A DNA stretch of 64,000 nt, from positions 70,496,001 to 70,560,000 of the forward strand of contig CM059432.1 in assembly GCA_030390025.1 (NCBI GenBank), written 5' to 3'. The DNA is from Squalus acanthias (taxonomy: Eukaryota). Numbering within the stretch: position 1 is the stretch's first letter; the number at the start of each line of letters is the position of its first letter. A model generated the notes under the pieces. It did not search any database. It was not told where the DNA came from and saw only the letters and a program-made list of their open reading frames with translations. Both the position numbers and the translations under genes were made by a program. This document shows, in pieces, positions 2,950 through 58,054 of the stretch.

Positions 2950-3063
2950 GTAACCTTATACCTAATTCTCCTTCTCACATCTTACTTCAGCAAACTGTGA
3001 GATGTTGCATATATCTCCAGCTCCAGCCTGGAAGGAGCCCGACACATAAAAGTTCATCATCAA

Positions 3064-9540: not shown

Positions 9541-9628
9541 AATGGTAGCATAGTGGTAATGTCACTTGGCTAGTAATCCAATAGACCTGGACTAATGATC
9601 CAGAGACATGAGTTCAAATTCCACCACG
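9541..9628 (+). promoter_or_regulatory. tRNA-derived Pol III internal promoter (A and B boxes)
   Basis: A box tagcatagtgg 9546-9556; B-box-like gagttcaaattcc 9610-9622, followed by accac. Confidence 0.7.
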
Positions 9629-9952
9629 GCAGCTGGGGAATTTGAATTCAGTTAATTAAATAAATTTGGAATAAAAGATAAAGCTAGTATCAGATAATGG
9701 TAAGCATGAAACTATCGGATTGTTGTAAAAACCCAGCTGGTTCACTAATTTTCTTCAGGGAATCGGCCGTGACTCCAGACCCACAGCAATGTGGTTGACT
9801 CTTAACTGCCCTCTGAAATGGCCTAGCAAGCCACTCAGTTGTAACAAACCGATACAAAACAAAATAATAAAAATGAAACCAGATGGACCACCTGGCATCG
9901 ACCTCGGCACCAGCTACGGACACGGCAATGGCACACCCAGCCCAGTCAACCC

Positions 9953-30700: not shown

Positions 30701-31294
30701 TGAGAAAAGGGGTGGCAGGGAGCAGCTAGATTTTTTTTCTCTCATTGTTATGTGTTTGGAACATTGTGAACATAGTGGCAGGATTTCCTTTGGTTGTACA
30801 TATGTTCTTTTAGAGCAATTTACGATATTGCTAGAAATAGCGAACAGAAAATCTTGATGCTATGTTTACTATCACTATTCAAAACTTAAATCTTAACCCA
30901 ACGTTCCCTGTTCTCCCATCTCCCAGTTAATTTTGGAAAGCTTTCGATATGGATTTATTTCAGAGATTACTTAAGATTAGGACCCACAGAATAGGAGATC
31001 AAATAGGGGTTCAAAAGCAGAAAAATTAATAGGACCTTAAAATTATCCCATGTTATGTTAATGTTATGTTAATACTAAAAGCATTAGAAATAACATTTTA
31101 GAGTTAGTCATATGCAGGTATTAGACAGCTTAGATATTCTAGGTAACTCCTGAAACATGGGTCTATTTTCTTTGGGCCATTGGAGTAACAATAGGTTAGC
31201 CCAATGCCACTGGGAGAAATGATTCTACAGGGGCCCCGGTAGAAAGGCACTACTAAAACAATGCAGGTACATATAAATGACAGTGGTTTCATTA

Positions 31295-33092
31295 TTTTTT
31301 AAATTAATTCCTGAGATGTGGGCGTCGCTGGCAATGCCAGCATTTAGTGCCCATCCCTAATTGCCCTTGAGAAGGTGGTGGTGAGCCGCCGCCTTGAACC
31401 GCTGTAGTCCGTGTGGTGAAGGTACTCCCACAGTATTGTTAGGGAGGGAGTTCCAGGAATTTGACCAAGTGACGATGAAGGAACGGCGATATATTTCCAA
31501 GTCAGGATGGTGTGTGACTTGGAGGGGAACTTGGAGATGATGGTGTTCCCATGCACCTACTGCCCTTGTCCTTCTAGGTGGTAGAGGTCTCGGGTTTGGG
31601 AGGTGCTGCCGAAGAAGCCTTGGCCAGTTGCTGCAGTGCAGGTGGAGGGAGTGAATGTTTAAGGTGGTGGATAGGGTGCCAATCAAGTGGGCTGCTTTGT
31701 CCTGGATGGTGTCGAACTTCTTGAGTGTTGTTGGAGCTGCACTCATCCAGGCAAGTGGAGAGTATTCTACCACACTCCTGACTTATGCCTTGTAGATGGT
31801 GGAAAGGCTTTGGGGAGTCTGGAGGTGAGGCACTCACTGCAGAATACCCAGCCTCTGACCTGCTGTTGTAGTCACCGTATTTATGTGGTTGGTCCAGTTA
31901 AGTTTCTGGTCAATGGTGACCCCCAGAATGTTGATGTTGGGGGATTCGGTGGTGGTAATGTTGTTGAATGTCAAGAGTGGTTAGACTCGCTCTTGTTGGA
32001 GATAGTCATTGCCTGGCACTTGTGTGGCATGAATCTTACTTGCCACTTATCAGCCCAAGCCTGAATGTCGTCCAGGTCTTGCTGCATGCGGGCACGGACT
32101 GCTTCATTATCTGAGGAGTTACAAATGAACTGAACACTGTGCAAACATCTCCACCTCTGACCTTTATGATGGAGGGAAGGTTATTGATGAAGCAGCTGAA
32201 GATGGTTGGGTCTAGGACACTGCACTGAGGAACTCCAGCAGCGATGTCCTGGGGCTGAGATGATTGACGTCCAACAACCACAGCCATAAGAACATAAGTA
32301 ATAGGAGCAGGAGTAGGCCATTTGGCCCTTCGAGCCTGCTCCGCCATTCAATAAGATCATGGCTGATCTTCTACCTCATCTCCACTTTCCTGCATGATCC
32401 CCATATCCCTTGATTCCCATAATATTCAAAAATCTATCGATCTCTGTCTTGAATATACTCAACAACTGAACCTCCACAGCCCTCTGGGGTAGAGAATTCC
32501 AAAGATTCACCACCCTCTTGAGTGAAGAAATTTCTCCTCATCTCAGTCCTAAATGGCCAACCCCTTATTCTGAGACTGTGACCCCTGGTTCTAGACTCCC
32601 CAGCCATCTACCCTGTCAAGCCCTGTAAGAATTTTGTATGTTTCAATGAGATCACCTCTCATTCTAAACTCTGGAGAATATAGGCCTAGTCTACTCAATT
32701 TCTCATCATAGGACAATCCCCCCATCCCAGGAACCAGTCTGGTGAACCTTTGTTGCACTCCCTCTGTGGAAAGTATATCCTTCCTTGGCCAGATTGGATA
32801 TGTCGTGCTTTTTGTGGACCGGACATACCTGGGCAGTTTTCCACATTGTCAGGTAGATACCAGTGTTGTAGCTGTACTGGAACAGTTTGGCTAGAGGCTT
32901 GGCTCGTCTTCAACATGACAGCCGGGATGTTGTCTGGGCCCATAACCTTTGCTGTATCCAGTGCGCTCAGCCGTTTCTTGATATCACGTGGAGTGAATCG
33001 AATTTGCTGAAGACTGGCTTCTGTGATAGTGGGGACCTCGGGAGGGGGCCAAGATGGATCATCCACTCGGAACTTCAGGCTGAAGATGGTTG
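31295..33092 (-). mobile_element. 5'-truncated copy of the 9536-13618 LINE family, interrupted by CR1
   Basis: ORFs 31357-31773 and 32695-33150 match the 11.1-13.6 kb sequence. Confidence 0.9.
32286..32786 (-). mobile_element. CR1 3' fragment nested in LINE
   Basis: cataagaacataag tail plus ggagcaggagtaggccattt stem-loop and RT C-terminus. Confidence 0.85.
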
Positions 33093-33714: not shown

Positions 33715-35430
33715 GAGATTAAATTGGATATACAGCACTGAAACAGTCCATTTGGCCCAACCAGCGTTTATGCTCCACTCGAGCCTCCACCCGTTTTTCC
33801 TCATTTAACTCTATCAGCATAACCCTCTATTCCCCTCTCCCTCAGATGCTTGTCCAGCCTCCCCTTAAAGGCATCTGTACGATTTGCTTCAACCACTCCC
33901 TGTGGTAGCGAGTTCCACATTCTCACCACTCTCTGGGTAAAGAAGTTTCTTCTGAATTCCCTATTGGATTTCTTGGTGACTATCTATCTTATATTGATGG
34001 TCTCTAGTTTTCCTCTTCCCCAGAAATGGAACATCCTCTCTATGTCTACACAATCAAAATCTTTCATAATTTTAAAGACCTCTATTAGGTCACCCCTCAG
34101 CCTTCTCTCCAAGAAAAAAGAGACCCAGCCTCTTCATCATTTCCTGATGGGTATAACCTCGCATTTCTGATATCATCCTTGTAAATCTTTTTTGCACCCT
34201 CTCCAGTGCCTCTATATCCTTTATATAATATGGTGACCAGAATTGTACACAGTATTCCAAGTGTGGTCAAACCAAGGTTCGATACAAGTTTAGCATAACT
34301 TCTCTACTTTTCAATTCTATCCCTCTAGAAATAAACCCGAGTGCTTGGTTTGCTTTTTTAGTGTCAAAATCCTGGAACTCCCTCCCTAACAGCACTATGG
34401 AAGTATCTTCACCACACGGACTGCAGTGGTTCAAGGCGGCTCACCACCACCTTCTCGAGGGCAGTTGGGGATGAGCAATAAATGCTGGCCTTGCCAGTGA
34501 CACCCACATCCCAGGAACGAATAAAAACAATTAACCTGCGTTGCTACCTTTAGTAATTTGTGTATTTGTACTCAGATCCCTTTGCTCTTCTACCCCACTT
34601 AGATTCTTACTTTCCAAGTGGCCTTATTTTTCTTACCAAAATGTAATACCTCACATTTATGTGTTGAAATTCATTTGCCAATGATATGCCCATTCTGCAA
34701 GTTTATTAATGTTGTCTTTTAACTTGTAGTCCTCCTCAGTATTGACTATCACCCCCAATTTGGTATCCTCCACAAATTTAGAAATTGTGTTTTTGATTCC
34801 AAACTCGAAATCATTAATATAAATTGTGAACAACATTGGTCCCAGCACTGATCCTTGTGGGACCCCACTTTCCACCTTCCGCCACTCTGAATGGCTACCC
34901 TTTACCCCTACTCTCTGCTTTTTGTCTTGAAGCCAGCTAGCTATTCATTCTGCTACTTGTCCCCGAATCCACATTCTCTGACCTTATTCATTAGTCTATT
35001 ATGTGGTACCTTATTGAGGGCCTTTTGGAAATCTAGATAAATTGCATCTACTGCATTACCCTTGTCTACTCTCTCTGTTACCTCTTCAAAGAATTCAATG
35101 AGGTTGGTCAAGCAAAACTTTCCCTTTTGAAATCCATGCTGGCTATTCATTAATATATTTTTAGTTTCTAGATGTTCTTCTGTGTTCTCCTTTTAGTAGG
35201 GATTCCATTATTTTTACTACCACCGATATTAAGCTGACTAGTCGATAGTTCCCTGGACATGTTCTATCTCCCTTCTTAACTATAGGTATTACGTTAGCTA
35301 TCCGCCAGTCCTCTGGCACTACACCTTTTTCTAATGAATTATTAAATATGTGTAATAGTGCCTCTACTATCTCTTCCCTAGATTCTTTTAAAATGTGCAG
35401 ATGTAATCCGTCTGGACCAGGGGTTTTGTC
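33715..35430 (-). mobile_element. CR1 ORF2 fragment (RT plus 3' end)
   Basis: ORFs 34657-34875 (GVPQGSVLGP) and 34953-35150 (QHGFQKGKFCLTNL). Confidence 0.85.
34362..34528 (+). mobile_element. Short 3' end of the 9536-13618 LINE family nested in CR1
   Basis: gtcaaaatcctggaactccctccctaacagcact...ataaatgctggccttgccag. Confidence 0.85.
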
Positions 35431-36020
35431 CTGAGTTTGATTTTATTTATTTAATATTTCTCATCTTTTTATTTTATATATTTATGATTAACTTTAATAT
35501 GATTTTAGGTTTTACTACCCCTTTCTGCTGGTTTTATGATTAATTTTATATAGTAAGTGTGGATGTCATAAAGTGGTTGAGATAAGGCATTGAACTTCAG
35601 CACCAGGAAGCTGTACTACTAGCAATCCAGTCCTTACCCTGGTGTATGACAGCAATCTTGCCATAACTTCTGTTATGTTGTCAGATTTAGTTCTGAAAAA
35701 CAAAGTCAGTAAGCAATTTTTTCCACCAATTAAAATATACTTGAATATCTTCACAGAATTAATGCTTCCTTTTGACACCTTTTGTCTCAAATTTCCCCGA
35801 ACTTGATTCTGTGTAAAAATGCCTGCTGCTGTACATGTGAGTCACTTCACACACGTCAGTGTTTTTTCACATTATGAGCTGCAAACTATTACATTCAACA
35901 CTTTGCCAGATCGTTCACCTCGGGAAATGTTAATATTAGCAATAAAGTTACATTGTAAAGTTCCTTGAGTTCTAGATCTTTAAAGAAATCTTTAAAATAG
36001 TTTAATTAGGAATAACGTAC

Positions 36021-39000
36021 TGTAGCTTTTAAAAGCTCTTTATAATAATTTGTCCGTGACTACACAAACCACTCTGGGTACAGGTATATTGTGTATCAGT
36101 AAAACAGGTTTATTAAGCATTAAACATCCAGTACAAAGAAGTAATACATAACAAGCAGATAGTCGCAGTCTGTTCATTAAACCCCGGCGTTCCTTCCGAG
36201 TGACTGTGACGCGGTCTCTTTATTCTCTTGCTGTGTTCCGTTGACTGAAGCTTCTCATCCTCTGGTTTCGCGCTGCCTTCAGTGTTCAATAGCTCTTCCT
36301 TTATACCTTTATTTCCCCTTCAAAATACATAGCAACATGCAGCTGCTTGGGCTATCTCTCCATTCTGACCTTCACAAGTACAGTCTATGATTCCCTCCCC
36401 TTTTCTTGTCAATCATCTTATGACCTTGTATTCAGTGCTGAGTACTGGTGAGGGCGATGGTTCCTCTGGGGAGTGCATCCAGAGCCAAGTCCACAGCACC
36501 ATGGAAGGCTCAGCTGCACAGGCGGGGCGGGGGGGGGGGGGGGGTGGGGGCGCAAGAGGAGAGGGAGACCAATAATGATAGGGGATTCAATAGTTAGGGG
36601 AGCAGACAGGCATTTCTGCAGCCGCAGACGTGACTCTAGGATGGTATGTTGCCTCCCTGGTTCCAGGGTCAAGGATGTCACTGAACAGCTGAAGGGCATT
36701 CTGAGGGGGGAGGGTGAACAGCCAGAGGTCGTGGTCCATATCGGTACCAACGACATAGGTAGGAAGAGGGATGAGGTCCTGCAGGCAGAGTTTAGGGAGC
36801 TAGGAAAGAGGTTAAAAAGCATCACCTCAAAGGTAGCAATCTCCAGATTACTACCAGTGCCACGTGCTAGTGAGTACAGAAATAGGAAGATAGAGCAGAT
36901 GAATGTGTGGCTGGAGAGATGGTGTAGGAGGGAGGGCTTTAGATTCCTGAGGAATTGGAACCGTTTCTGGGGGAGGTGGGACCTCTACAAGCCAGACGGG
37001 TTGCACCTCAACGGGAACGGAACCAATATCCTCGCGGGAGGGTTTGCTAGTGCTGTTGGGGAGGGTTTAAATTAGCTTGGTAGGGGGATGGGAGCCTAAG
37101 TATAGACTCAATAGGGAGGGAAGAAAAATTGGAAAACAAAAACGTAGAAAGTAAATTGGAAGGACAGAGGAATCGAGGGCTAGATAGTAGTCAACAAGGA
37201 GGTTTGCCTGTACTAAATGGTATATATTTCAATGCAAAGAGTATAGCGAACAAGGCAGATGAGCTGAGGGCACAGGTAGATACTTGGGACGATGATATTA
37301 TAGCTATTAGAGATGTGGCTGAAAGAGGGGCAGGTATGGCAGCTCAACATTCCTGGTTACAGGATTTTCAGACGGGATAAAGAGGGAGGTAAAAAGGGAG
37401 GGGAGGTCACAGTGTTGATTAAAGAAACTATTACAGCTGTGAGGAGGGATAATATGTTGGAGGGATCATCAAACGAGGCCATATGGGTCAAATTGAAAAG
37501 CAAAAAAGGGGCGATCACACTGCTGGGAGTGTACTACAGACCCCCAAACAGTGAGGGAGATAGAAGAACAAATATGTAGACAAATTTCTGAAGTGCAAAA
37601 ACTATAGGGCTGTAATAGTAGGGGATTTCAACTACCCCAATATTAACTGGGATAAAATTAGTGTGAAGGGTATAGAGGGTGCGGAATTCCTCAAATGCAT
37701 CCAGGAAAACTTTTTTAGCCAGTATGTAGCAAGCCCAACAAGGAAGGAGGCGGTTCTGGACTTAGTTTTATGGAATGAAGCTGGGCAGGTAGAAGGCGTA
37801 TCAGTGGGGGGAGCATTTTGGTGCTCGTGACCAAAATTCTGTTAGATTTAAGGTAGTTATGGAAAAGGACAAGGATAGACCAGGAATAAAAATTCTAAAT
37901 TGAGGAAAAGCAAATTTTGCTCAGCTCAGAGGGGATTTAGCCATAGTGGACTAGAAACAGCTACTTGAAGGTAAATCAGTGTCAGAGCAGTGGGAGGCAT
38001 TCAAGGAGGAGATCTGGAGGGTTCAGACCAAATATGTGCCCTTAAAGAAAAAAGGTGGGACTAACAAATCTAGAGCCCCCTGGATGTCTAGGGACATACA
38101 GGGTAGGATAAAGAAAAAATGGGAGGCGTATGACAGATACCGAGGGCAAAATACTCCAGAATCTTTAGAGGAGTACAGAAAGTGCAGGGGTGCAATTAAA
38201 AAGGATATTAGGAAAGCAAAGAGAGAGCATGAAAAATTCTTGGCAAGTAAAATCAAGGAAAACCCACAGATGTTTTATAAATCTATTAAGAGTAAGAGGA
38301 TAACTAAAGAAAGGATAGGGCCTATTCGAGATCATAAGGGTAATCTGTGTGTGGAGGCGGGAGACGTCGGTAGGGTTCTTAATGAATACTTTGCGTCTGT
38401 TTTCACAAAGGACGGGCGAAGCAGACATTGCTATTGGGGGAGGAGTGTGAAATATTAGATGAAATAAACACAGTGAGAGAGGAAGTATTAGGGAGTTTAG
38501 CAGCTTTAAAATTGGATAAATCCCCAGGCCCGGATGAAATGTATCCCAAGCTGTTAAGCGAAGCAAAAGAGGAAATCGCAGAGGCCCTGACCATCATTTT
38601 TCAATCCTCTCTGGCTTCAGGTGTGGTGCCGGAGGACTGCTAATGTGGTACCCTTGTTTAAAAAGGGAGAAAAGGATAGACCGAGTAATTACAGGCCAGT
38701 CAGCCTAACCTCGGTGGTGGGAAAATTATTGGAAAGAATTCTGAAGGACAGGATAAATCTTCATTTAGAAAGACACGGATTAATCAAGGATAGTCAGCAC
38801 GGATTTGTTAAGGGAAGGTCGTGTCTGACAAACTTGATTGAAAATTTTGAGGCGGTAACAAGGAGGGTAGATGAGGGTAGTGCGATTGATGTAGTGTATA
38901 TGGACTTTAGCAAGGCTTTTGATAAGGTTCCACATGGCAGACTGGTCATGAAGTTAAAAGCCCATGGGATCCAGGGCAAAGTGTCAAGTTGGATTCAAAG

Positions 39001-40479
39001 CTGGCTCGGAGACAGGAAGCAGAGGGTAATGGTTGATGGGTGTTTTTGTGACTGGAAGGCTGTTTCCAGTAGGGTTCCGCAGGGCTCAGTACTAGGTCCC
39101 TTGCTTTTTGTGGTATATATCAATGATCTAGACTTTAATATAAGGGGGTATGATTAAGAAGCTTGCAGATGATACTAAAATCAGCTGTGTTGTTGATGCT
39201 GAAGAAGGAAGCTGTAGACTGCAGGAAGATATCAATAAATTTGTCAGGTGGGCAGAACAGTGGCTAATGGAATTCAGTCTGGAGAAGTATGAGGTAATGC
39301 ATTTGGAGAGGGCTAACAAGGAAAGGGAATACACATTAAATGGTAGGACACTGAGTAGTGTAGAGGAACAAAGGGACCTTGGCGTGCATGTCCACAGATC
39401 CCTGAAGGTAGTAGGCCAGGTAGATAAAGTGGTTAAGAAGGCATACGGAATGCTTGCCTTTATTAGCTGTGGCATAGAATACAAGAGCAGGGGGGTTATG
39501 CTTCAACTGTATAAAACACTTGTTAGGCCTCAGCTAGAGTGCTGCGTGCAGTTCTGGTCACCACATTACAGGAAAGATGTGATTGCACTAGAGAGGGTAC
39601 AGAGGAAATTTACAAGGATGTTGCCGGGAGTAGAGAATCTTAGCTATGAGGAAAGACTGGATAGGCTGGGTTTGTATTCCTTGGAACTGAGGGGAGACCT
39701 TATTGAGGTGTGTAAAATTATGAGGGGCATTGATAAAGTGGATGGAAAGGACCTATTTCCCTTGGCAGATGGGTCAAAAACCAGGGGGCACAGATTTAAA
39801 GTAATTGGGGGAAGGTTTAGAGGGGACTTGAGGGGAAATTTCTTCACCCAGAGGGTTGTGGGGGTCTGGAACTCACTGCCTGAAAGGGTGGTAGAGGCAG
39901 GAACCCTAACCACATTTTAAAAAGTACTTGGATGTGCACTTGGGATGCTCTAACCTGCAGGGCTATGGACCAAAAGCTGGGAAGTGGGATTAGGCTGGAT
40001 AACTCTTTGTTGGCCGGCGTGGACACGATGGGCTGAAATGGCCTCCTTTCGTGCTGTAACTTTCTATGATTCTATGTTAGTTCCGCTAAGCCTATTTCTG
40101 TGCATAACAAAATACCTTTATCTAAGAAGTTCACTTTACAGAACATCCTTGAGGTGTTTTCTAAACGGTTTGTCTATTCTGCTATTTCTAAAATGAAGGC
40201 TCCAACTCCTATCACTTTTCCATAACATTACTGAACGCCACGTCCCTGACAGAGTCTCCGTGTTTACTTAGCACTACATTACATTCCTTCAGTAATTTAA
40301 AACCGAGGTTTTTAGTCAGGTTGGCATAATTTTCCCATCCTGCTTTGGTCTCAGCCATTCGTCATTTTATACAGGTTTTTTAGATTTTTAACATACAATT
40401 TCACATTATAGTTATATAAAAATGGATATAGAATCTTAATAATGTTTACTAAATCCTACAGGAAACACTCTATCCTACA
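36021..40479 (-). repeat. 3' LTR (about 36021-36429 plus 40076-40479), split by a CR1 insertion
   Basis: Both halves match 45521-46325 collinearly; the junction tgacct(c/t)gt|tagttccgc is intact in the other LTR. Confidence 0.9.
36430..40076 (+). mobile_element. CR1 LINE (ORF1 SGNH/GDSL esterase plus ORF2 EN-RT) inserted in the LTR
   Basis: ORF 36473-37075 IGDSIVRG...HIGTNDIG...DGLHLN; ORF2 pieces 37129-39920 (QHGFVKGRSCLTNL, LADD); tail ttctatgattctatg. Confidence 0.92.
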
Positions 40480-40481
40480 GA

Positions 40482-40491
40482 TCCCTACCTT
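40482..40491 (-). promoter_or_regulatory. Polypurine tract (degenerate)
   Basis: aaggtaggga on the - strand, 2 nt before the 3' LTR TGT. Confidence 0.55.
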
Positions 40492-40830
40492 GAGGGCGAG
40501 GCATTTTGCCGACCCCTCAAAACTAAAATCTTACGTATGGGTTTGTTCTCCTACGTTTATGTAACTCTAAGATATTCTGGGTTGTGATCATATTTAAACG
40601 CGATCAGGTTTCGTACATTAGGTGTTTCAGGTGGCAGGTGTAAACTAGTAAGCATATCAGTACTACAAGCTGGGTTATGACCAGTACATGGGAAATTATC
40701 CTAATTCAAGGAGGAATTTCCATGTTTGTCCCTATGTTGTATTATTAGTCCTAACAATTTTTGACTCCCTACCTTGTGGCATTTGTGTTTAACTGGGTAG
40801 ATCTTAATCAAACTTCTGATCTTACATAGT

Positions 40831-41079
40831 TCAAAGTCTTACTACATGGGTTACATATATCAAATACACTATCATTACAAGTTGGAGAACTACCAGAGCA
40901 TGTGAAATAATATGAACCTATGGGCGTGCTGATGTATTAAGCCCAATATCCCACCAGTGTGAGTTGTCCCTTATGCTATCAAGTTGAATATCTATTCTCG
41001 AGTTGTCTTGTTCCAAAACATAAAAATGCTTTAGGGAGGAGTTCAGTCGCATCACGAGCTCACTGAAACCCTCAAACAA
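40831..41079 (-). pseudogene. env-like C-terminal remnant (heptad region, aromatic membrane-proximal motif, TM helix)
   Basis: Manual translation LFEGFSELVMRLNSSLKHFYVLEQDNSRIDIQLDSIRDNSHWWDIGLNTSARP*VHIISHALVVLQLVMIVYLIYVTHVVRL*. Two N-glycosylation sequons; position about 350 bp upstream of the PPT. Confidence 0.7.
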
Positions 41080-41389
41080 CAGGAATGTCGTATCCGAATT
41101 GTGTCACATAATTGTGTAGCACATAATTGTGTAGCTCATACTCAAAAACGTGTTGGTTGATGGGACAGGTCCTGTTAGACCCATAAAGCATGGTAGTTGC
41201 GGTAGTAGTGACACAGGAGGCACCACCAAAATCACCTCATACTGGATTCGTACTGGTTTTTCCCATGCTCTGTTATCTACAAAACACAATTATTACAAGT
41301 TAAATTCAGTCTTGCAATCATTTCACGTGACATTACAGTTTAACATCTAATCAACAAATCATGGACTTAAAAGATTCTCCAGATCTCTC

Positions 41390-41863
41390 TTACTCGTATC
41401 CATCTTGTGGATAATTCTTACTAAACATGATTTCTCCTTGGCCCTCAATTGTCCCAATCCAAAATCCATATAACTCCACTTCAACTTCAATTTCAATCCC
41501 TCTAACGGGTACCAGTGTGTTTAACTCTATTCTGATTGTTTCATTAATTAGATAGTTTCTCGATGGAGTATGTGTCAATGCTTTAAAAGTTGTCTCATTA
41601 ACCATTTCATGTCTTGCTGTTAAGTAACTGAGCATGTCTGAGACCCGTTCTTCAGTGCAGATTCACCATACATTCCCGGATGGTAATTGCCTCATACGTA
41701 ACGAATCACATTTGCACACTAATATCGGTATCTCAATATCGTGCCGCATGTGCCATCCGATACAAGCCATTCTCGGGCTTTCAGGTGATCTTATCAAAAG
41801 ATTGTCTAGAGGTCTTTGCTCATCTTCCACCGCATGGTCCCAATGTCTCTGGTAGTGGCCGGA
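41390..41863 (-). pseudogene. Unknown ORF remnant of the LTR element (about 158 codons, one in-frame TGA)
   Basis: Frame is open 41863-41390 except TGA at 41665-41663; includes ORF 41390-41635. No domain recognised. Confidence 0.4.
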
Positions 41864-43447
41864 CTATCAAATTCAGTTTTCTTAAGGTTCTTTATAGGCA
41901 GGGACTCTAATGTCTCCAAGGGAAAGCTATCAATTTACTATTCTTAGCTACACTTTCTGACTTTCACTAGAAAGTTTTGAAAATTCCCATTCAGTAGTGT
42001 AATTCTCCTGTTTCTATCTCACACCCTCAATCACTTCCCCTCTCCATTTTACACATCCCATTAATTACCATTCATATCTCATTCATGAGCCCTGGAGGAA
42101 CTTTACTGTCCAGTACAATATTTAAGATAGAAAACATAGATCAAACATTCTCACTTGGTCCAAATTATTAACATTTTTTATTTATCATTATTTTAGAGAA
42201 TCTTTCATTTTCCCAAAAGTAACCTAATATATAGTGCCTGAGTCCATTTTGTCATTTCAAAATTATCCCAAAATCCAAACAGCAGTACTGTTGAACTGAC
42301 AGGTTTTGTCAATGTTCAATTTCATTTCTATCAATTTATCTTATCAATTTCAATTTCAGAAACAAGTGATTCCCAGGCTAGGTGGTTTATGCGGTGTTTT
42401 AACATTAGAGACAGAAGTGCTGCAATTAGCTTACAAGGTAACTTCCATATAACAAAAGAAAGAAGAGAATCCATTGTGACTCTGCTTAAGAGCCCAAGGG
42501 GTTAATTTATCAAATCATTTTCCTTCTGTCACTGGGGAAATATTAACTTAAAACTAAGAAACTTAAATTTAATAATATCCAATATCTTTAAATTTCATTC
42601 AGCAATACTAAAGTTGTTGCTTGGTGAATTTAAACAGCTGTCAGTGGAAAGGGTTAACTCCTTTGCAGGTTTTTAAGAAGGCGGAACGTAACATTGTCAG
42701 GCGTACGCAATTGCGTCACTTCACGTAAATTTAAAAAAACTTTCCCGATCGAAAAAGACAGTTGTGTTTTCACAACTTAATAGGTTAGTTACCCTTAATA
42801 ATTCCAATCTAATTCAGATCAATACTTTATTAACGAAACACAGAACATATAAAACAAAACAAAATAACACATGCTTGCAGAAAACAGTAAATTATGTCAT
42901 TTCTTATTGTCCTTTCTTCAGATGCCTTTCCAAAATACTGTAAAAACACTGAATACAGCTGGAGAAAAATTAGTTTTTCACATTTAAAGAAATCAAATCA
43001 AAATTTCACCATAGCGACCGTGAGTCCAAGGTTAAATTTTAGACAAACTTAATCTTTTGTTAAACAAACTTTTTGTTCTCCTCAGTTTTTTACACACCAG
43101 CTTAACTTAAATTGTAGTTCAAAGTTTTTTTTTTCCAATTCTGAGTGCACAATCTTATTCGCACATTCTTAAAACTTCCAAAATCCAAGACCAGACAAAA
43201 GTTTTAAATACTTTTAACACAGAGAAGTGGGTGGAGCTAAAACACATAACAGAATCTTTCTTTTAAAGACAGACTTTTCAGACAAAAGGAATACTGTAAC
43301 TTCTTAAACATTTATAGTCAGGAAAACTTTCACTCTTTAACACACACTTTCACACAAACTGAAATTCCAGAATATTTTTTTTAAGGTTCCTTAACTCAGC
43401 AATCTTGTATTTTATTTGTCTCGGCACAGACGTTAATAACTTCCATG

Positions 43448-45454
43448 TCAGTAAAACTTTAGGTTTCTCTTTTTTTTTCTTTTTTTAAATCGGCATCTCA
43501 GCAACTTAGGGGTCACTTGAGTTCTAGTTAGGACACTAACTGGTTTCTCAATGTATGCGGAACCGTCCAGCGGGGGGTTTTCCATGTCACTGCTGACATA
43601 GGCTACGGGGGCTGCTGTAGGAGGAGGTGGTAAGGGAGGATATAATTCTCCCTCAGACGGTTTGCACCCTGGGCCTGTCTGTCTAGGACCTCGGCAATCC
43701 TTTGCAAAGTGTCCCACCTTTCTGCAGTTATAACATATCAAGGGTTGCTTACGGGGTGGCGTCCCTGGGTGGGCCTGAGGTCCCTCAACTACATGCACTG
43801 GCGTCTCTGCTGTTGGTACCTGGACCTGAGTTTTAGCGTAGGCCCATGCAGCATTAGCGTCTCTTAAAAGGTCTGTCCATTGCGAGTTGTGGCTGACAGT
43901 GTGCCCTAAGTCTGCTCGCAGTGAGGCCTGAATATTCTTTAAGTATATTTTCTTAAATGCTGCCTCATTCTTCCCGGTTAAGACATTATCATTGGGGCGT
44001 GCCTGCATCATCTCATAAACAGTGTACAACCGATCCCCGAATGCAGCAGGGATCTCATGAGGCCCTTGTTGAGACTGGCTTAATTTCTGAACCAGATCAA
44101 TAGTGTCCAAGCCCAGAGCTGTTTGTATAGTTGTGATTAAGTTATTCAGGGGGTTCCCCACATTAAAGGCAATGAATGGGAGACTGGTCCGTAGGTCCGG
44201 GGTCAAGGCAGACAGTATAACATTTTTCATGTCACTGTCCTCAAAACTAGGATGGTAATTCCGGAACCCCACTATACGTTGCCTTAGCTCCATGGGGCAT
44301 GTTTGTGGGTTAACTGGTCTGAATTGCTGGACACATGCCTGTAGTTCTGCATAGTTCAGGGGCTGGGACCATTCATAAGTACCCACCCACAGCATTCCCG
44401 GGTGGGCTGCCTCTGGTTGTGCTCCTGCTTGTGCCTGGACACCGTCAGCAGCTGGTGGCACGTTAGGAATCACCTGGGTGCGAGTCAGAATATTAACTGG
44501 GGCTTTAGCGGGTGCAGGCTCGTCCACTGAGGTTTTTATGATATTGTTATCAGCATAGGCTGGGAGCCTCTTAGCCAGGTCGATGGTGGCATATGAGACG
44601 GGGGCCTTTTGGGGAGGGGGTAGCAAGGGAGGATATAGTTCTCCACTTAACTCCTCACATTCTTTATCATAACTCACAGGGGGGTCTATTCCCGTGACTG
44701 CCGCTATTACAGCCTGTTGTTTACCCAGCTGGTTTTCCAACTGTTGTATAGTAATATGACACTGCCTGTGGTCCCGACTCCCTTTGGGGGTGCTGAAGAG
44801 CCTCTCTTAGGGCTCCTCATGAATCATTTAATTGTCTGGTAAGACAGTCATTGTCTTTTGTTAAGGAGGCTACCTGACACTGAGCCTCCTCAAGGTTCTA
44901 CATTGCAGCGCCAGCGTGAACTGCATTAATACTCTGGTGCTGTATTATTGCTGTCTAAGCACCAACCAGGCACTGAAGAACTTCATTTTGTTTCTGAAGA
45001 GCTTCATTCTTACTTTTTAACTCTGCAGCCTCTTTTTCCCAGTTTGACTTCTCGCCCGTTAACTTTAGATTCTCTTCTATCAGCCGTAGCTTGTCTTTTT
45101 CTAATTTATCCTGGTTGTCCTCTAACTTGATTTTATTATTTTCCATCTCTAGGAAGGTCTCTTTATCTTGCTCTACACAATACACAGCTGCACTGCCCTA
45201 TCTGGCTTCCATTTCTTCTCCTTAACTTGTTTCTCAATGAACGCAACAACGTCGTCAAAGGATACTCTCTCACCCTTGGTTAGACATTCTACTACTAACG
45301 TCTGTAACTGTGCATCCTCGCACTTCTTCATTAACTTCGTTTTAAAGTCTACAAAAAAATTCTCACTCAACATTCTGCTGTACGTTAAAGAGACACTATC
45401 TGTTAGATAACCTAACTTTCCACAAGGACTTTCATTGATCAGTCAAAAATCCAT
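43448..45454 (-). pseudogene. gag: gag-like gene: N-terminal coiled-coil, capsid-like region, CCHC zinc knuckle; 5' part frameshifted, 430 codons open
   Basis: ATG 45454 about 47 nt after the PBS; ORFs 45173-45373, 44955-45185 and 43448-44740; CYNCRKVGHFAKDC at 43694-43735. Confidence 0.85.
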
Positions 45455-45500
45455 GCGCCTGCCTTATACACAATGGACCTGGTTTCAGTTAATAGTCACA

Positions 45501-45518
45501 GCCCCACATTGGGTGCTA
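45501..45518 (-). promoter_or_regulatory. Primer-binding site, tRNA-Lys(CUU)-like
   Basis: tagcacccaatgtggggc vs TGGCGCCCAACGTGGGGC (15/18, two differences at CpGs); separated from the LTR CA by the dinucleotide AT. Confidence 0.85.
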
Positions 45519-45520
45519 AT

Positions 45521-46325
45521 TGTAGCTTTTAAAAGCTCTTTATAATAGTTTGTCCGTGACTACACAAACCACTCTGGGTACAGGTATATTGTGTATCAGT
45601 AAAACAGGTTTATTAAGCATTAAACATCCAGTACAAAGAAGTAATACTTAACAAGAAGATAGTCGCAGTCTGTTCATTGAAACCCGGCATTCCTTCCGAG
45701 TGACTGTGGCGCGGTCTCTTTATTCTCTTGTTCTGTTGACTGAAGTTTCTCATCCTCTGGTTTCGCGCTGCCTTCAGTGTTCAATAGCTCTTCCTTTATA
45801 CCTTTTTTTTCTCTTCAAAATACATAGCAACTTGCAGCTGCTTGGGCTCTCTCTCCATTCTGACCTTCACAAGTACGGTCTATGATTCCCTCCCCTTTTC
45901 TTGTCAATCATCTTATGACCTCGTTAGTTCCGCTAAGCCTATTTCTGTGCATAACAAAATACCCTTATCTAAGAACTTCACTTTACTGAACATCCTTGAG
46001 GTGTTTTCTAAACAGTTTGTCTATTCTGCTGTTTCTAAAATGAAGGCTCCAACTCCCGTTCACTTTTCCATAACATTACCGAACTCCATGTCCCTGACAG
46101 AGTCTCCGTGTTTACTTAGCATTACATTCCATTACTTCAGTAATTTAAAACCGAGGTTTTTAGTCAGGTTGGCATAATTTTCCCATCCTGCTTTGGTCTC
46201 AGCCATTTGCCATTTTATACAGGCTTTTTAGATTTTTAACATACATTTTCACAGATTATAGTTATATAAAAATGGTTATAGAATCTTAATGTTTACTAAA
46301 TCCTACAGGTACACTCTATCCTACA
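45521..46325 (-). repeat. 5' LTR, 805 bp
   Basis: TG...CA ends; TATAAA (- strand, about 45795-45800) and AATAAA (- strand, 45719-45724 and 45609-45614). Confidence 0.92.
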
Positions 46326-46692
46326 GTATAATTCAGAAAGTACTTTGAAGCTAATGGGCTCAGCATAAAAAATTTTGTATTTCAAAAAAGTAAACCGTTT
46401 ATTGTTGCTTCTTTAAAATATACACTTTTATTTTCTAATCTGCCTGCATTGGAAACAGAGATGGAAAGGAGTAGAGAAAAACATTGCGTAAAGTCATTGA
46501 CATAGCATGATATGGTGAGGCTACAGCAGTTACAGATGGCATAGTTTGTCTGGGAGGACAGGGATCAAATCGAGCATCATAATATGGAGGATCAGCTTTC
46601 TAACTGCTGTATTTCACTGCTGCCTTCCACCTCTCCCAATGGGAAAGGAGCGACTCTTTTTATACTTTTGTGTAAACACCAATATCAAGTTA

Positions 46693-47079
46693 TTTTTTTT
46701 TTTAAAATTGTTTATGGGATGTGGGCGTCGCTGGCAATGCCAACATTTATTGCCCTTGAGAAGGTGGTGGTGAGCAGCCTTCTTGAACCACTACAGTCCA
46801 TGTGGTGAAGGTACTCCCACAGTGCTGTTAGGTAGAGAGTTCCAGGATTTTGACCCAGCGATGATGAAGGATCGGTGATATACTTCTAAGTCAGGATGGT
46901 GTGTGACTTGGAGGGGAACTTGGAGGTGGTAGTGTTCCCATGCGCCTGCTGTCCTTCTAGGTGGAAGAGGTTGTGGGTTTGGGAGGTGTTTAAGGGGGTG
47001 CCAATCAAGCAGGCTGCTTTGTCCTGGATGGTGTCGAGCTTCTTGTGTTGTTGGAGCTGCACTCATCCAGGCAAGTGGC
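46693..47079 (-). mobile_element. 3' fragment of the 9536-13618 LINE family with internal deletions
   Basis: LAWMSAAPTT...SKSWNSLP; A-tail at about 46693-46703. Confidence 0.85.
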
Positions 47080-47327
47080 CAGGACACGGGATAACTCCCC
47101 ATCTCTTCAAAACAGTGCCGTGATCTTTTACGTCCACCTGCGAGAGCAGACGGGGCCTAGGTTTAATGTCTCAACCGAAAGACGGCACCTCTGACAGTGC
47201 AGCACTCCCTCAGCACTGCACTGGAGTGTCAGCCTAGATTTATGTGCTCAAATCCCTGGAGTGGGACTTGAACCCACAACCTTCTGACCCAGAGGTGAGT
47301 GTGCTACCAACTGAGCCACAGCTGACT
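47077..47327 (-). mobile_element. tRNA-derived SINE 5' part with a Deu-domain-like core
   Basis: On -: A box tggctcagttgg, B box ggttcaagtcc, then gctgacactccagtgcagtgctgagggagtgctgcact...gtaaaagatcacggcactgttttgaagag. Confidence 0.75.
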
Positions 47328-48891: not shown

Positions 48892-49182
48892 ACAAAAATG
48901 AGAAGTCGCACAACACCAGGTTATAGTCCAACAGTTTTATTTGAAATCACAAGCTTTCGGAGCTGTTGCTCCTTCGTCAGGGTGAAGTAAAGAGATACAG
49001 AATCGCCAAAGCATATATAGTCTATATATGCTTTGGCGATTCTGTATCTCTTTACTTCACCCGACGAAGGAGCAACAGCTCCGAAAGCTTGTGATTTCAA
49101 ATTAAACTGTTGCACTATAACCTGGTGTTGTGCGACTTCTCATTTTTGTCCACCCCAGTCCAACACCGGCATCTCCGCATCG
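48892..49182. mobile_element. Palindromic Penelope pLTR insertion (second family)
   Basis: Arms 48892-49020 and 49022-49149 are near-perfect inverted repeats with a 1-nt spacer, plus a unique 3' extension to 49182. TSD ttactctttaca at 48883-48894 and 49183-49194. Confidence 0.88.
48948..48984 (-). ncRNA. Minimal type I hammerhead (core intact on - strand; + copy 49058-49093 reads CCGACGA)
   Basis: On -: cac-c-CTGACGA-A-ggagc-aaca-gctcc-GAAA-gctt-gtg; palindromic AGCT in place of stem III. Confidence 0.7.
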
Positions 49183-52500: not shown

Positions 52501-53845
52501 CTGTCGCTTCCTGTCACACTCTGGTTATCCATTACCCCTATCGCTACCTTGAACTATTGTCTTGTCCCTTCTCTTTAAATTTCTAAGTTTCCCCTCACCT
52601 GAACCCTCCCCCCCACTATTTAATATAAAGCCCCTATCTACAGCCCTAGTTATTCAATTCACCAGGACACTGGTCCCAGCACTGTTCAAGTGAAGCCTGT
52701 CCCAGTGGAACAGCTCCCTCTTTCCCCAGTACTGGTGCCAGTGTCCCATGAATCGAAACCCATTTCTCCCACACCAATTCTTGAGCCACGCATTCAACTC
52801 TCTGATCTTAGTGACCCTATGCCAATTTGCTTGTGGCTCAGGTAGTAATCAGAGATTATTACCTTTGTGGTTCTGCTTTTTAATTTAGCCCCGAGCTGCT
52901 CATACTCCCTCAGCAGAACCTCTTTCTTAGTCCTACCTATGTCGTTGGTACCTACGTGGACCACGACAACTGGATCCTTCCCCTCCCACTCCAAGTTCCT
53001 CTCCAGCCTCGAAGAGATATCCTTAATCCTGGCACCAGGCAAGCAACACACATTCGGGACTCACACTCTCGGCTGCAGAGAACAGTATTTATCCCCCTAA
53101 CTATACTGTCCCCTACCACTACTACATTCCTTTCTACTCTCCCAACTTGAATGGCCCCCTGTACCATGGTGCTGTGGTCAGATTGCTCATCTTCCCTGCA
53201 GTCCCTACTCTCGTCCACACAGGCTGCAAGAACCTCGTACCTGTTGGACAAGTGTAAGGCCTGAGGCTCCTCCGATGCTACCTTCTGGATCCCCATACCT
53301 GCCTCATTCGTAGTCACACCCTCCTGTCCTTGACCACAGACCAAATCTGAAGTATTTAACCTAAGGGGTGTGACTGCCTCCTGGAACAAAGTGTCCAGGT
53401 AAATTTCTCCCTCCCTGATGTATCAGTGTCCGAAGCTCAGACTCCAGCTCATCAACTCTGAGCCGAAGTTTCTTGAGCTGCAGACACTTACTGCAGATGT
53501 GGTCGCCCTGGATCACACTGGTGTCCACCAGCTCCCACATGCTACAGCTGCAACACATCACCTGCCCTGCCATCTCTATTGTATTTTATTTAACTAATTA
53601 GGTTTTCAAGTTTTGAAATACTCAATTGTCTATTAATAGTTTTTAATCTAGGTAATAACCTTGTTTAATTTATTAAATTTAGTTGTATGCTTTAGGTCTT
53701 TACTGTAACTTAGTCCACAGTCCTAATTTAATCCTAGTTGTTTATATTTTTATGTATCAAGCAGCATTTCTTATCCCCACCTCACCAAATTCACTTAATC
53801 ACCAAATTCCCGTGTTTAGTAGTCTGTTGAAGCAGAACTCCGTAG
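49579..53845 (-). mobile_element. Near full-length CR1 LINE (ORF1 zinc finger plus esterase; ORF2 EN-RT), decayed
   Basis: ORF1 MAGQVMCCSCSMWE... (53573), VGDSIVRG, HVGTNDIG; ORF2 pieces 52532-49760; tail aagaacataagaa at about 49580. Confidence 0.92.
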
Positions 53846-56800
53846 AACAATGGATTCCAGCATTTTCCTGACGACTGATGTCAGGCTAACTGGCCTGTAG
53901 TTCCCTGTTTTCTCTCCCTCCTTTCTTGAATAGCGGTGTTACATTTGCTACCTTCCAATCTGCTGGGACCGTTATAGAATCTAGGGAATTTTGGAAGATC
54001 AAAACCAATGCAATCACTATCTCTGCAGCCACCTCTTTTAGAACCCTAGGATGTAGGCTGTCGGGTCCAGGGGATTTGCCGGCTTTTAGCCCCATTAGTT
54101 TCTCTAGTACTTTTTCTCCTCTTATATTAATTACGTTAAGTTCCTCACCCTCATTAGACCCTTGGTTCCCCACCATTTTTGGTATGCTTTTTGTGTCTTT
54201 TACTGTGAAGACAGATACAAAATATTTGTTTAACATTTCTGCCATTTCCTTATTCCCCATAATAATTTCTGCTGTCTCAGGCTCTAAGGAACCAACATTT
54301 ACTTTTGCTACTCTCTTCCTTTTTACATACTTGTCGAAGCTCTTACAATCTGTTTTTATATTTCTTGCTAGTTTTCTCATTTTATTCCCTTTTTATCAAT
54401 TTTTTGGTCCTCCTTTGCTGGTTTCTGAAACTCTCCCAATCCTCAGGCTTACTACTATTCTTTGCAACATTATGAGAGTCTTCTTTCAATCTAATGCTAT
54501 CCTTAACTTCTTTAGTTAGCCACGGATGGATCACTTTTCCCGTGGAGTTTTTGTTTCTCAATGGAATGTATTTTTGTTGAGAATTATGAAATATTTCTTT
54601 AAATACCAGCCACTGCTTATCTACCGCCATACCTTTTAATCTATTTTTCCAATCTACCTTAGCCAACTCGCCCCTCATACCTATGTAATTGGTTTTATTT
54701 AAGTTTAAGACTCTAGTTTCGGACTTAGGCAAGTCACTCTCAAACTTAATGTGAAATTTTATCATATTATGATCACTCTGCCCCAGAGGATCCTTTACTA
54801 TGAGATTGCTAATTAACCCTCTCTCATTACAGAATACAAGATCTAAAATAGCCTGTTCCCTGGTTGGTTCCATGACACATTGTTCTAGAAAACAGTCCCT
54901 AGTGCATTCCATGAACTCGTCCTCCAGACTACCTTTGCCAATTTGATTTGTCCAGTCTATATGAAGCTTAAAGTCCCAAACAATTATTGCATTACCTTTG
55001 TTACAAGCTCCTACTATTTCTTGATTAATATTCTGTCCAACAGTATAGTTACTGTTGGGGGGCCTATATACTACTCCCACCAGTGTTTTCTGCCCCTTGT
55101 TATTCCTTATCTCTACCCATACTGATTTACTTCCTGATGTTCTGAGCCGAGATCTTTTCTCTCTACTGTCCTTATGTCATCCTTTATTATCAGGGCTACC
55201 CCCCCCCCCTTCTTTTCCATTCTGCCTGTCTTTTTGAAACATCAAGTACCCTGGAACATTTAGTTCCCAACCTTGGTCACCTTGCAACCACGTCTCTGTA
55301 ATGGCTATTCGATCAAACCCATTTATCTCTATTTGTGCCATTAGTTTGTCTATCTTATGAATGCTTTGTACATTCAGATAAAGAGCCTTTAATTTAATTT
55401 TTTTTAACCAGTGTTCCTTGCTTTGACCTTGATTTCTGCTGCACTGCTACCATTGAACTCTCTGTCCCTTCCTGTCACACTCTGCTTATTTCTACCCAAA
55501 TCGCTACACTGCTCTATTGCCTTGACCTTTCTCTTTAGATTTCTAAATTTCCCCTCACCTGACCCCTCCCCCCCACCTTTTTCAGTTTAAAGCCCTATCT
55601 ACAGCCCTAGTTATTCGATTCGCTAGGACGCTGGTCCCAGCCCGGTTTAAGTGGAGCCCGTCCCAATGGAACAGCTCCCTCTTTCCCCAGTACTGGTGCC
55701 AGTGCCTCATGAATTGAAACCCCTTCTTCCCACATAATTCTCTGATCTGCTTGACCCTTTGCCAATTTGCACGTGGCTCAGGTAGTAATCCAGAGATTAT
55801 TACCCTTGAGGTTCTGCTTATTAATTTAGACCCTAGCTCTTCAAACTCCCTCAGCAGAACCTCATTCTGAGTTCTATCTGTCGTTGGTTCCTACATGGAC
55901 CACAACAACTGGATCCTCACCCTCCCACTCCAAGTTCTTCTCCAGCCGCGGGGAGATATCCTTAACCCAGCCTCAGGGACTCTCTTTCGTGGCTGCAGAG
56001 AACAGTATCTATCCCCCTGACTATACTGCCCCCCTCCCACTACCACATTCCTTCCTTCTTCCCCCCCCCCCCCCCCCCCGCCCCCCACCACCTGGATGGC
56101 CCCCTGTACCACGGTGCCATGGTCAGTTTGCCCATCCTCCCTGCAGTCCTTTTCCTCATCCACACAGATAGCAAATACATCGTACCTGTTGGACAAGGTC
56201 AAGGGCTGAGGCTCCTCCATCACTATATCCTGGGTCCCCATACCTTCCTGACTCGCGGTCACACCCTCCTGTCGCTGACCATTGACTAACTCTAAAGTAC
56301 TGCTTAACCTAAAGGGTGTGACTGCCTCCTGGAACAAAGTGTCCAGGTAACTCTCCCCCTCCCTGATGCATCGCAATGTCTGCAGCTCGTACTCCAGCTC
56401 AATAACTCTGAGCCGAAGTTCCTCGAGTTGCAGACATTTACTGCAGATGTGGTTGCTCGGGATCACGATGCTCTCCACAAACTCCCACATGCTGCAGTTA
56501 CGACACACCACCTGGCCTGCCATCTCTAACCTTGTTTTATTTATTAATTAATTAGTTAAAGCTTTTATTAAATTGATATTTTAGTTTTATTGTTTATTTT
56601 ATCTAGTTTATTAATTTAATAAGTATTAGCAAGTTACAGTTTCTCAGCTCTTAATTTAACCCCTTCCCTAACTTAGAGAGCAAAAAAAAGCTGTAATCCT
56701 CACCAACCAATCACTTACCTGTTCTCCTGTGATGTCACTCTTTGATTTTTTTTTGTTGTTTCTGAATCGGAGCCTCGCGCTGCCGCTGCTTTAATTCAGG

Positions 56801-57894: not shown

Positions 57895-58054
57895 TTTTGA
57901 AAATAGCTATTTGTTTTGAAATTATTTGCTTTTTAAGAACCTACCTATATTCTTTTAAATATCAAATGAACTCTTGTTGCATTCTGCTGATGCTTGTTCC
58001 GTTCCTCAATTAAACAAGACAGCCCTTGTAATAATAGCCCCATCTAAATATAAC

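Follow-up and report, generated by a model that had tools for sequence, protein, structure and literature searches.

What kind of element occupies positions 36021..46325 of the window (the whole 64,000-nucleotide stretch of Squalus acanthias DNA analysed), and from which retroviral lineage it derives, is the question raised by a retrovirus-like structure on the minus strand in which gag is broken and pol is absent. The locus holds the decayed remains of an LTR provirus that lacks pol and carries a gag of retroviral type. The 5′ LTR (45521..46325, minus strand) is 805 bp long, has TG...CA termini, and contains AATAAA at LTR positions 602 and 712; the 3′ LTR lies on the same strand in two halves (first half 40076..40479, second half 36021..36429). 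The pair is identical at 770 of 803 aligned columns (95.9%, in line with the roughly 95% given in the first-pass annotation), and the LTR–LTR divergence, suggested there as a means of dating, corresponds to a K2P of 0.042; the best reading is that integration occurred tens of millions of years ago. The single uninterrupted span described previously did not hold, as the 3′ LTR is split by a 3,646-bp LINE fragment that had gone unmentioned. This 5′-truncated fragment (36430..40075, plus strand, opposite to the provirus) comprises the remnant of an esterase ORF1 (GDSL esterase, E 4e-13), an endonuclease–RT remnant (RVT_1, E 1e-26), and a short tandem tail. The LINE, which we take to be of the CR1 type, is not present in the 5′ LTR, and it entered the 3′ LTR after the provirus had integrated. 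Because this 3.65-kb insertion splits the 3′ LTR, the element proper measures about 6.65 kb, and 35% of the 36021..46325 span is non-retroviral.

The provirus is flanked by a near target-site duplication (TSD) in which three of four bases match (left GTAC, 36017-36020; right GTAT, 46326-46329). A primer-binding site (PBS) of the tRNA-Lys1,2 type (45501..45518, minus strand) follows the CA of the LTR after a 2-nt AT spacer; it matches the Lys1,2 18-mer at 15 of 18 bases and is the sole site with three or fewer mismatches on either strand of the window. A polypurine tract (PPT; 40483..40491, minus strand) precedes the 3′ LTR, with three bases between them. These three signals agree with the initial description. 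The gene reported as a CCHC gag does encode the knuckle, but its reading frame is broken into three pieces on the minus strand, the middle one with three stops. Piece 1 (45173..45442) is the probable N-terminus, and by itself it yielded nothing significant against the relatives (score 12 versus a shuffle maximum of 17). Piece 2 (44768..45197) contains a predicted coiled coil, with weak Pfam coiled-coil matches and an hhalign value of 35% to the N-termini of relatives; a heptad test on this piece gave no significance (p 0.26). Piece 3 (43448..44806), open over 452 codons, encodes a DHxxC motif, a Pro-rich segment with LYPPL, a two-domain capsid with a major homology region of the class I type, one CCHC knuckle (PF00098, E 2e-6; PF00098 was found in seven of the eight family members), and a second, diverged Pro-rich copy. 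An old duplication inside gag was also detected (score 122 versus a shuffle maximum of 58).

The place of pol is taken by an AT-rich non-coding stretch (42000..43447, minus strand) that marks the start of a block of high contig depth; at 1,448 bp, 32% GC, and a longest sense frame of 56 codons, it corresponds to the approximately 1.4 kb of AT-rich DNA noted earlier. The absence of pol was borne out by searches for remnants: with 375 retroviral ORFs, nothing outside gag rose above shuffle level (a best of 27.7 bits, against 23.5-27.3 for shuffles). All six frames gave negative scores with an RT profile. Further along lies a stop-poor frame with no assigned function (41390..41863, minus strand; 157 codons, one stop). 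The unknown ORF of the first-pass annotation therefore exists as a frame, but the length of its open last 90 codons is within chance, being reached in 158 of 500 shuffles. The junction between gag and the AT-rich stretch is present in public contigs in at least two other copies, about 7% divergent, which makes the pol-less structure multi-copy: the two listed records bridging the end of gag are X17 record 14, which covers 43341-45055 (115 of 1,701 bases differ), and X1 record 5, which covers 43415-43742 (24 differences). Among the public contig records listed, no single record spans the whole element. The missing pol, the retained cis signals, and the pol-less junction in other copies uphold the earlier claim that the element is non-autonomous, and amplification dependent on a helper is highly probable.

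The earlier reading of an env-bearing element with one transmembrane remnant stood in part: TM-like, Trp-rich tails are present, but there are two of them and neither has demonstrable Env homology. Tail 1 (40834..41236, minus strand) combines a Cys-containing stretch, a predicted amphipathic helix, a Trp-rich motif, and a hydrophobic segment (hydropathy 2.4); it is interrupted by a stop and, near 41,075, by a frameshift, and falls within the high-depth block. Tail 2 (40622..40759, minus strand), located in a low-depth zone, has a related second Trp/stop-rich motif and a hydrophobic segment (hydropathy 2.75). As proteins the tails align with a score of 82 (shuffle maximum 55; 0 of 5000 shuffles reached 82), and as DNA they show no detectable relation (91 versus 111); they are therefore old paralogues and not a fresh tandem copy. 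Comparison of the tails with known Env sets gave no significant match (best, delta, 16 columns, probability 4%), nor did comparison with seven gamma-type Envs, and the short decayed tails produced no Pfam or PDB match at all, PF00523 of the paramyxovirus F-related Envs included. Most of env is missing from the element, and neither a signal peptide nor a cleavage site nor a fusion peptide can be made out in it. Overall, the LTRs, near-TSD, PBS, gag, absence of pol, and purine tract of the initial description were retained; the LINE had been omitted and env overstated.

Since the element contains no RT, its lineage is unplaced. Its Gag has as relatives, at 21-29% identity, only uncharacterised proteins from frogs and from unnamed records, the nearest named ones coming from Xenopus tropicalis (A0A803J891 / LOC116407076); no Pfam model assigns the family, and no assignment was found in the literature searched. 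With relatives of this kind alone, the lineage may be an undescribed one, as the first-pass annotation proposed. A capsid-only profile built from eight sequences matched eight gamma-type Gags in hhalign (87%, E 4e-6) over 62 columns covering the major homology region and the CTD, against 0.5% for foamy (n=7), 5.8% for beta (n=3), 3.3% for delta (n=5), and 1.8% for lenti (n=5) Gags. When NC was included, the gamma, lenti, and delta groups all reached 96%. The family profile aligned across 213 columns to the Gag of record L001, which, like L058, we take to be snakehead retrovirus. Capsid-only scores against single sequences were at shuffle level (snakehead-type Gag 21.6, L012 15.7, shuffle maximum 20.3), L012 being the one true epsilon Gag in the capsid sequence comparison. 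The capsid model (pLDDT 71) had epsilonretrovirus Gags as its two best BFVD matches (E 1.3e-5 and 2.5e-4), and the MLV capsid ranked first in the PDB structure search. Together with the HIV and MLV capsid matches of the PDB sequence search, these results support a class I-type major homology region and CTD with moderate strength. According to the available text of PMC6001957, gamma-clade viruses are confined to amniotes and fishes are infected by clades Mu and Huo. An origin in fish retroviruses of epsilon or snakehead grade, not in foamy viruses, is likely, and an orthoretroviral origin that is neither foamy nor loki is rather probable.

The same capsid could also be read as that of a Ty3/Gypsy-derived non-autonomous element, its hydrophobic tails derived either from an env that it had captured or from a membrane protein other than an envelope. 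Structural Z-scores of 7-9 did not separate MOAP1, Copia, PNMA2, Arc, foamy, and orthoretroviral capsids; MOAP1 was the top VIA match (Z 9.3, 93 residues), language-model features favoured the Retrotrans_gag / Ty3_capsid / PNMA clusters (0.92-0.95), and Env homology was not found. We nevertheless regard a Ty3/Gypsy derivation as unlikely: at E values up to 10, none of the eight family members matched Retrotrans_gag, Ty3_capsid, or PNMA in Pfam, and the PDB sequence search with the family profile matched in the capsid region only HIV and MLV and no Ty3, Arc, PNMA, or PEG10 capsid chain. The combination of an 18-nt 3′-end Lys PBS with a membrane-anchor tail lying immediately ahead of the PPT is, moreover, the retroviral arrangement.

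The cis signals had been called foamy-like, a description that did not survive comparison. The CA–AT junction occurred at 14 of the 31 Lys-PBS loci compared, in 13 foamy-type records and in the class I virus record L012 (presumably Xen1), whose identical CA–AT and Lys1,2 junction makes this feature non-diagnostic of foamy viruses. Lys1,2 sites are likewise found in records of the lenti, beta, and class I types, and a 4-bp TSD is common among class I retroviruses. In foamy-type records the PPT directly abuts the LTR as GGG|TG in 10 of 12 cases (one offset, one not located), a junction missing from the element. A foamy assignment was rejected on the CCHC knuckle and class I-type major homology region, the absent foamy PPT junction, and the PBS junction shared with L012. 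As described in the available text of the respective papers, foamy Gag has no major homology region (PMC2717909), and fish foamy-like ERVs have no Cys-His boxes and a GGGTG PPT junction (PMC5210030). It is improbable that the element belongs, as a non-autonomous form, to a basal clade of foamy-like viruses (shark CmiFLERV / frog XtrFLERV, RT-only) and retained an orthoretrovirus-type CCHC Gag. Its PBS junction would fit such a clade, the foamy capsid 8ozk aligned across both domains (Z 7.6, 158 residues), and an X. tropicalis FLERV, from the species of the nearest named Gags, groups with shark FLERVs (available text of PMC5512871); however, its Cys-His box and PPT junction are the opposite of those in fish foamy-like ERVs, and the foamy Gag profile stayed at 0.5%. 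Similarly doubtful is an undescribed deep shark/frog lineage, possibly CmiFLERV/XtrFLERV, uniting the foamy-type primer junction with an orthoretrovirus-type coiled-coil/MHR/CCHC Gag and its own Env family, the head of which may be a beta-sandwich (F5/8 type C-like). If true, the element would stand as an intermediate in the transition between ortho- and spumaretroviruses, its envelope tail carried on one of the most abundant LTR-internal modules of the genome.

The lokiretrovirus link raised in the first-pass annotation found no support in the sequence. Descent from a lokiretrovirus resembling zebrafish Bhikhari is very unlikely, even though that element is pol-less, has a coiled-coil and capsid Gag, and is complemented in trans (available text of PMC12067270). 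In the same text, Bik-1 carries a Gly-rich patch where the knuckle would be; in a comparison by eye and text search, the major-homology motif common to the four Loki Gags of the available PMC7947760 supplement was a different one, and FADRL, FSDRL, or FGDRL has no occurrence in 300 of the 318 pages of that supplement. None of the six chondrichthyan genomes screened is starred as positive.

Contig depth bears on how the element was assembled. In X1, summed contig depth, which is not a copy number, was 666-1,267 over gag, 13,357-53,799 over 40715-43534, 1,780 over 40480-40714, and 9 in the unique flank; three of four LTR bins (8,322-14,286) were far above gag. The step was repeated in X5 and X17, the low-depth zone towards tail 2 and the PPT standing at 3,819 in X5, and the one raw-read run (X21) barely covered the element. 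A 2.7-kb 3′ block is thus at ~10-80x the summed contig depth of gag. We give about an even chance to a two-family chimera, in which a 2.7-kb block shared with a far more abundant repeat family took the place of pol and most of env. LTR-driven RNA would have kept its priming and packaging signals and been primed by tRNA-Lys1,2, with RT and integrase supplied in trans by a helper retrovirus and the element's own Gag perhaps co-assembling. Template switches in reverse transcription could have linked the family A LTR and gag with the abundant block, made up of the AT-rich DNA, the unknown frame, and tail 1; a further switch may have returned to family A just ahead of its own tail 2, PPT, and LTR; the proposed return would explain the two tails. 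Spread would have been intracellular or helper-enveloped, given the lack of recognisable entry features in the tails. Among the 15 of 722 joints listed, no high-depth joint showed the upstream content of the abundant form, and none linked the PBS to the block.

That lack of a PBS-to-block joint also counts against a single-family history, which we consider possible but less probable. Here, pol would have been lost by internal deletion, a further, gag-less derivative would have out-amplified its parent and so produced the depth step, and the tails would reflect an ancient duplication within the family. LTR depth far above that of gag is expected if gag-less, LTR-bounded copies dominate, and the internal duplication of gag indicates that duplications happen in the element; yet depth is greater over the block than over the LTRs and drops by a factor of more than 10 ahead of tail 2 and the PPT, parts that a gag-less derivative would still need. 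The complete reading, a decayed, pol-less, helper-copied provirus of epsilon or snakehead grade and probably recombinant, is in our view slightly better than an even bet. A dead, helper-dependent provirus is in itself ordinary, pol-less families having already been described in zebrafish and koala. Its Gag, however, sets apart a small family in vertebrates, with members in frog and in unnamed records, whose pol would place a missing fish-retrovirus branch and test whether basal foamy-like viruses had zinc knuckles. Should the depth step prove real, it would point to the exchange of a highly abundant 2.7-kb module among different LTR families, as in recKoRV but within an old vertebrate lineage.

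When compared to known systems, the element shares the Lys1,2 PBS after CA–AT and the 4-bp TSD with foamy viruses and fish foamy-like ERVs (clade Tu), but differs in its knuckle, major homology region, PPT junction, and 0.5% capsid match. With clade Mu (RMERV, WEHV2, L012) it shares the best capsid fold matches, the class I-type major homology region, and the L012 PBS junction; L012 differs in that its Gag has two knuckles and its Env is of the gamma type, with an immunosuppressive-domain/CX6CC motif that is not seen in the tails. RMERV is an epsilonretrovirus according to the available text of PMC12690878. Snakehead retrovirus and clade Huo resemble it in a predicted N-terminal coiled coil, no N-terminal Gly, a capsid, and a single CCHC knuckle (available text of PMC2717909 and PMC6001957), and SnRV-like ERVs are reported from the elephant shark (available text of PMC4422223); in contrast, the snakehead PBS is of the Arg type, the Envs do not match, and the capsid-only score is at shuffle level. 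Bhikhari (Bik-1) is likewise a pol-less LTR element with a coiled-coil and capsid Gag that needs the RT and integrase of a partner (available text of PMC12067270), but it is young and intact, without knuckle or env tail, and the Loki Gag motifs compared by eye and text search are not shared. The recombinant of koala retrovirus and PhER, recKoRV, is recent and retains the gag leader only, whereas our element spans gag in full and dates back tens of millions of years, its probable chimerism being deduced from depth and duplicated tails and not from known parents. In recKoRV, as far as the available text of PMC6112702 describes it, and likewise in the structure proposed for our element, the LTR and 5′ part of one retrovirus are followed by a foreign retroelement middle and then by the env end and 3′ LTR of the first, with no intact virus and spread by retrotransposition.

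The element at 36021–46325 (minus strand) is a real object of an ordinary kind, an old helper-dependent endogenous retrovirus that measures approximately 6.65 kb once an inserted LINE is discounted. Its 5′ LTR (46325–45521, minus strand, 805 bp, TG...CA) is paired with a 3′ LTR on the same strand, whose two halves (40479–40076 and 36429–36021) are split by a LINE of 3,646 bp (36430–40075, plus strand). The LTRs are identical at 770 of 803 columns, with 19 transitions and 14 transversions (K2P 0.042, SE 0.007). LTR–LTR dating, as suggested in the first-pass annotation, yielded 21 to 96 Myr depending on the assumed rate: 96 Myr (63–129) at 2.2e-10, the assumption made in PMC4422223, and 21 Myr at 1e-9. 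The flanking 4-mers are GTAC and GTAT. The primer-binding site (PBS), set off from the terminal CA by an AT spacer, is an 18-mer agreeing at 15 of 18 positions with the Lys1,2 motif, exact copies of which are present in 31 viral records; it is the sole such site in the window. The LINE, presumably CR1-type, is 5′-truncated and retains remnants of a GDSL-esterase ORF1 (E 4e-13) and of an RT (RVT_1, E 1e-26); a clear target-site duplication is lacking at either end. Since it is absent from the 5′ LTR, it came in after provirus integration. LINE-related pieces are also situated at 52712–53121 and other places in the window, which additionally contains a near-perfect 258-bp palindrome at 48892–49149 whose arms of 90 nt and 41 nt match at 97% and 100%, respectively, and which may be a MITE or have arisen by fold-back duplication, and a minisatellite-like tandem array at 56746–57932 with long open frames on both strands.

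Reading along the minus strand, gag is composed of three frame pieces, located at 45442–45173, at 45197–44768 (three stops), and at 44806–43448 (open over 452 codons). A Pro-rich segment with LYPPL, a late-domain-like motif, is present twice, once ahead of the capsid and once beyond the zinc knuckle (score 122 vs. a shuffle maximum of 58); its source is an old internal duplication of 43457–43704 and 44411–44696, with 148 of 246 aligned bases identical. No pol remnant was detectable in the element. The 1,448 bp located 3′ of gag are non-coding with a GC content of 32%, and a degraded protease considered for this AT-rich stretch received no support from tblastn. It is followed by a stop-poor frame (41863–41390, minus strand) without a match in Pfam or PDB, and its single-sequence structure model reached a pLDDT of 32. 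In the open 90-codon part of this frame (41390–41662), the Atlas language-model features resemble those of F5/8 type C (galactose-binding-like) domains (0.91; 111 of 256 features in common), a predicted likeness that we treat as a weak lead only.

Two segments, each composed of a Trp-rich motif and a hydrophobic stretch, precede the polypurine tract (PPT) on the minus strand: tail 1 at 40959–40834 and tail 2 at 40759–40622. They are related to each other (score 82, reached by 0 of 5000 shuffles), and in make-up, as in their location immediately ahead of the PPT, they are consistent with the terminal part of an env gene. The wider tail-1 region (40834–41236) contains a perfect 15–16-bp tandem duplication (41105–41135). 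No significant match to the tails was obtained in Pfam, PDB, or six Env groups; a word-indexed protein search with an env-like tail returned 23 candidates, none at E ≤10, and in tblastn, TM ends of BLV and HTLV type fell on tail 1 with a score no better than noise (23 bits). The heptad periodicity of the predicted tail-1 helix was not significant (p 0.12). Neither a signal peptide nor a cleavage site nor a fusion peptide could be seen, so that in functional terms the element does not count as env-bearing. What is left of the earlier description as env-bearing is a pair of tails without an assignment.

Parts of the stretch were present in 20 sequencing runs covering eight coded organisms and nine studies (shares 0.13–0.38), and depth and copies were examined in four of the 21 listed runs (X1, X5, X17, X21). 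None of the runs was labelled as RNA, although X17 may be an RNA run. Among the contigs listed, two cross the gag end into the AT-rich DNA and differ by approximately 7% from this locus, indicating, as the first-pass annotation had proposed for checking, that the pol-less structure is multi-copy and multiplied after pol loss. In X1, the summed depth was 9 in the unique flank, 666–1,267 in gag, 13,357–53,799 in the 2.7-kb block at 40715–43534 (AT-rich DNA, stop-poor frame, and tail 1), 1,780 in the bin directly preceding the 3′ LTR, and 1,133–14,286 in the LTR bins. In X1, the block thus reached about 10–80 times the gag depth. A comparable step is visible in X5 and X17, and coverage of the element in X21 is minimal. 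Block contigs stop at 43,438–43,439 in two runs, with a T-run close by. Read loosely, as summed contig depth is not equal to copy number, these values would correspond to some hundred copies with gag and to thousands of the block, which probably belongs to a very abundant LTR-internal family. Outside the element, an extremely high-depth repeat at 46695–47326 (millions in X1 and X5), with more copies at 31292–31758 and, inverted, at 34363–34531, probably represents the principal SINE/LINE family of the host.

A template-switch recombinant is the simplest way to account for the step in depth, its fall ahead of tail 2, and the presence of two paralogous tails, and we consider the chances of such a two-family chimera to be about even. 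One family (A) would have supplied the LTR and gag, and the block of a second, abundant family (B) would have replaced pol and most of env, after which a template switch would have returned to family A with its own tail, PPT, and LTR. The resulting RNA would have kept every cis signal and been copied by a helper's enzymes; after integration, the copy would have decayed and received the LINE. The main rival, possible though on the improbable side, explains the same depth step by a single family in which a gag-less offshoot was more successful.

Concerning the lineage, searching 1.84 billion proteins with Gag yielded 75 matches at E ≤0.001, mostly to the zinc knuckle alone; five (P0007, P0008, P0017, P0026, P0064) matched the capsid region with 26–31% identity over the matched stretch, two being uncharacterised Xenopus tropicalis proteins and three unnamed. 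The Gag relatives have a capsid, with one CCHC in seven of eight aligned members, and share with our Gag a DHxxC motif that closes the helical N-terminal region (hhalign 93.5% vs. shuffle-level scores). Word-indexed searches returned nothing for the Gag query and one already known member for the alignment query, and scans of metagenome, viral, and prokaryote collections, as well as DNA pattern scans, gave no related loci. The AlphaFold capsid model (8 sequences, pLDDT 71) is helical with two domains; its top viral-library matches were the Gags of a Rhinella marina ERV (E 1.3e-5) and WEHV2 (2.5e-4), MLV capsid came first in PDB at a non-significant E of 0.023, and VIA Z-scores of 7–9 tie many capsid families. 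The heptad periodicity of the predicted Gag coiled coil was not significant (p 0.26).

The reference set comprised 76 viral loci grouped by lengths and protein starts; neither a His-type PBS pattern nor an RT scan (28 loci) added an epsilonretrovirus such as WDSV/WEHV to it. The capsid-only profile scored 87% (E 4e-6) against eight gamma-type Gags over 62 columns spanning the major homology region, vs. 0.5% against seven foamy Gags and 0.3–5.8% against other groups. The alignment to the snakehead-type Gag extended over 213 columns, knuckle included, and fell to shuffle level once the knuckle was removed, leaving a likeness of architecture only; SnRV was dropped as a firm assignment after this capsid-only control failed. 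In PDB, the family profile matched HIV and MLV capsid regions solely, besides knuckles and coiled coils. No Gag family member matched Gypsy-type Pfam models; the Atlas features of Gag lean to Gypsy. As gamma-clade viruses are found in amniotes alone according to PMC6001957, the likeliest source is clade Mu (epsilon-like) or clade Huo (snakehead). For this unplaced Gag family, no published description was found in the searched literature, outside which lay most subscription journals and Repbase.

When compared to known systems, the foamy-like cis signals highlighted in the first-pass annotation proved non-diagnostic: a class I record (L012) with gamma-type Env and CCHC Gag bears the identical CA-AT and Lys1,2 junction (553–570). 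The same record carries two related frames upstream of gag (1277–2088). Of 12 foamy-type records, 10 have the GGG|TG PPT junction, which the element lacks, and foamy-like ERVs of fish, according to PMC5210030, are without Cys-His boxes, in contrast to the CCHC of our Gag; together with the capsid profile, this argues against foamy affinity. A lokiretrovirus reading is not supported either: the Loki Gags of PMC7947760 (300 of 318 supplement pages searched) show different motifs. Helper-driven copying has been proposed for Bhikhari (Bik-1), a pol-less zebrafish lokiretrovirus, and the koala retrovirus recombinants (recKoRV), as presented in PMC6112702, are template-switch recombinants of the kind proposed here.
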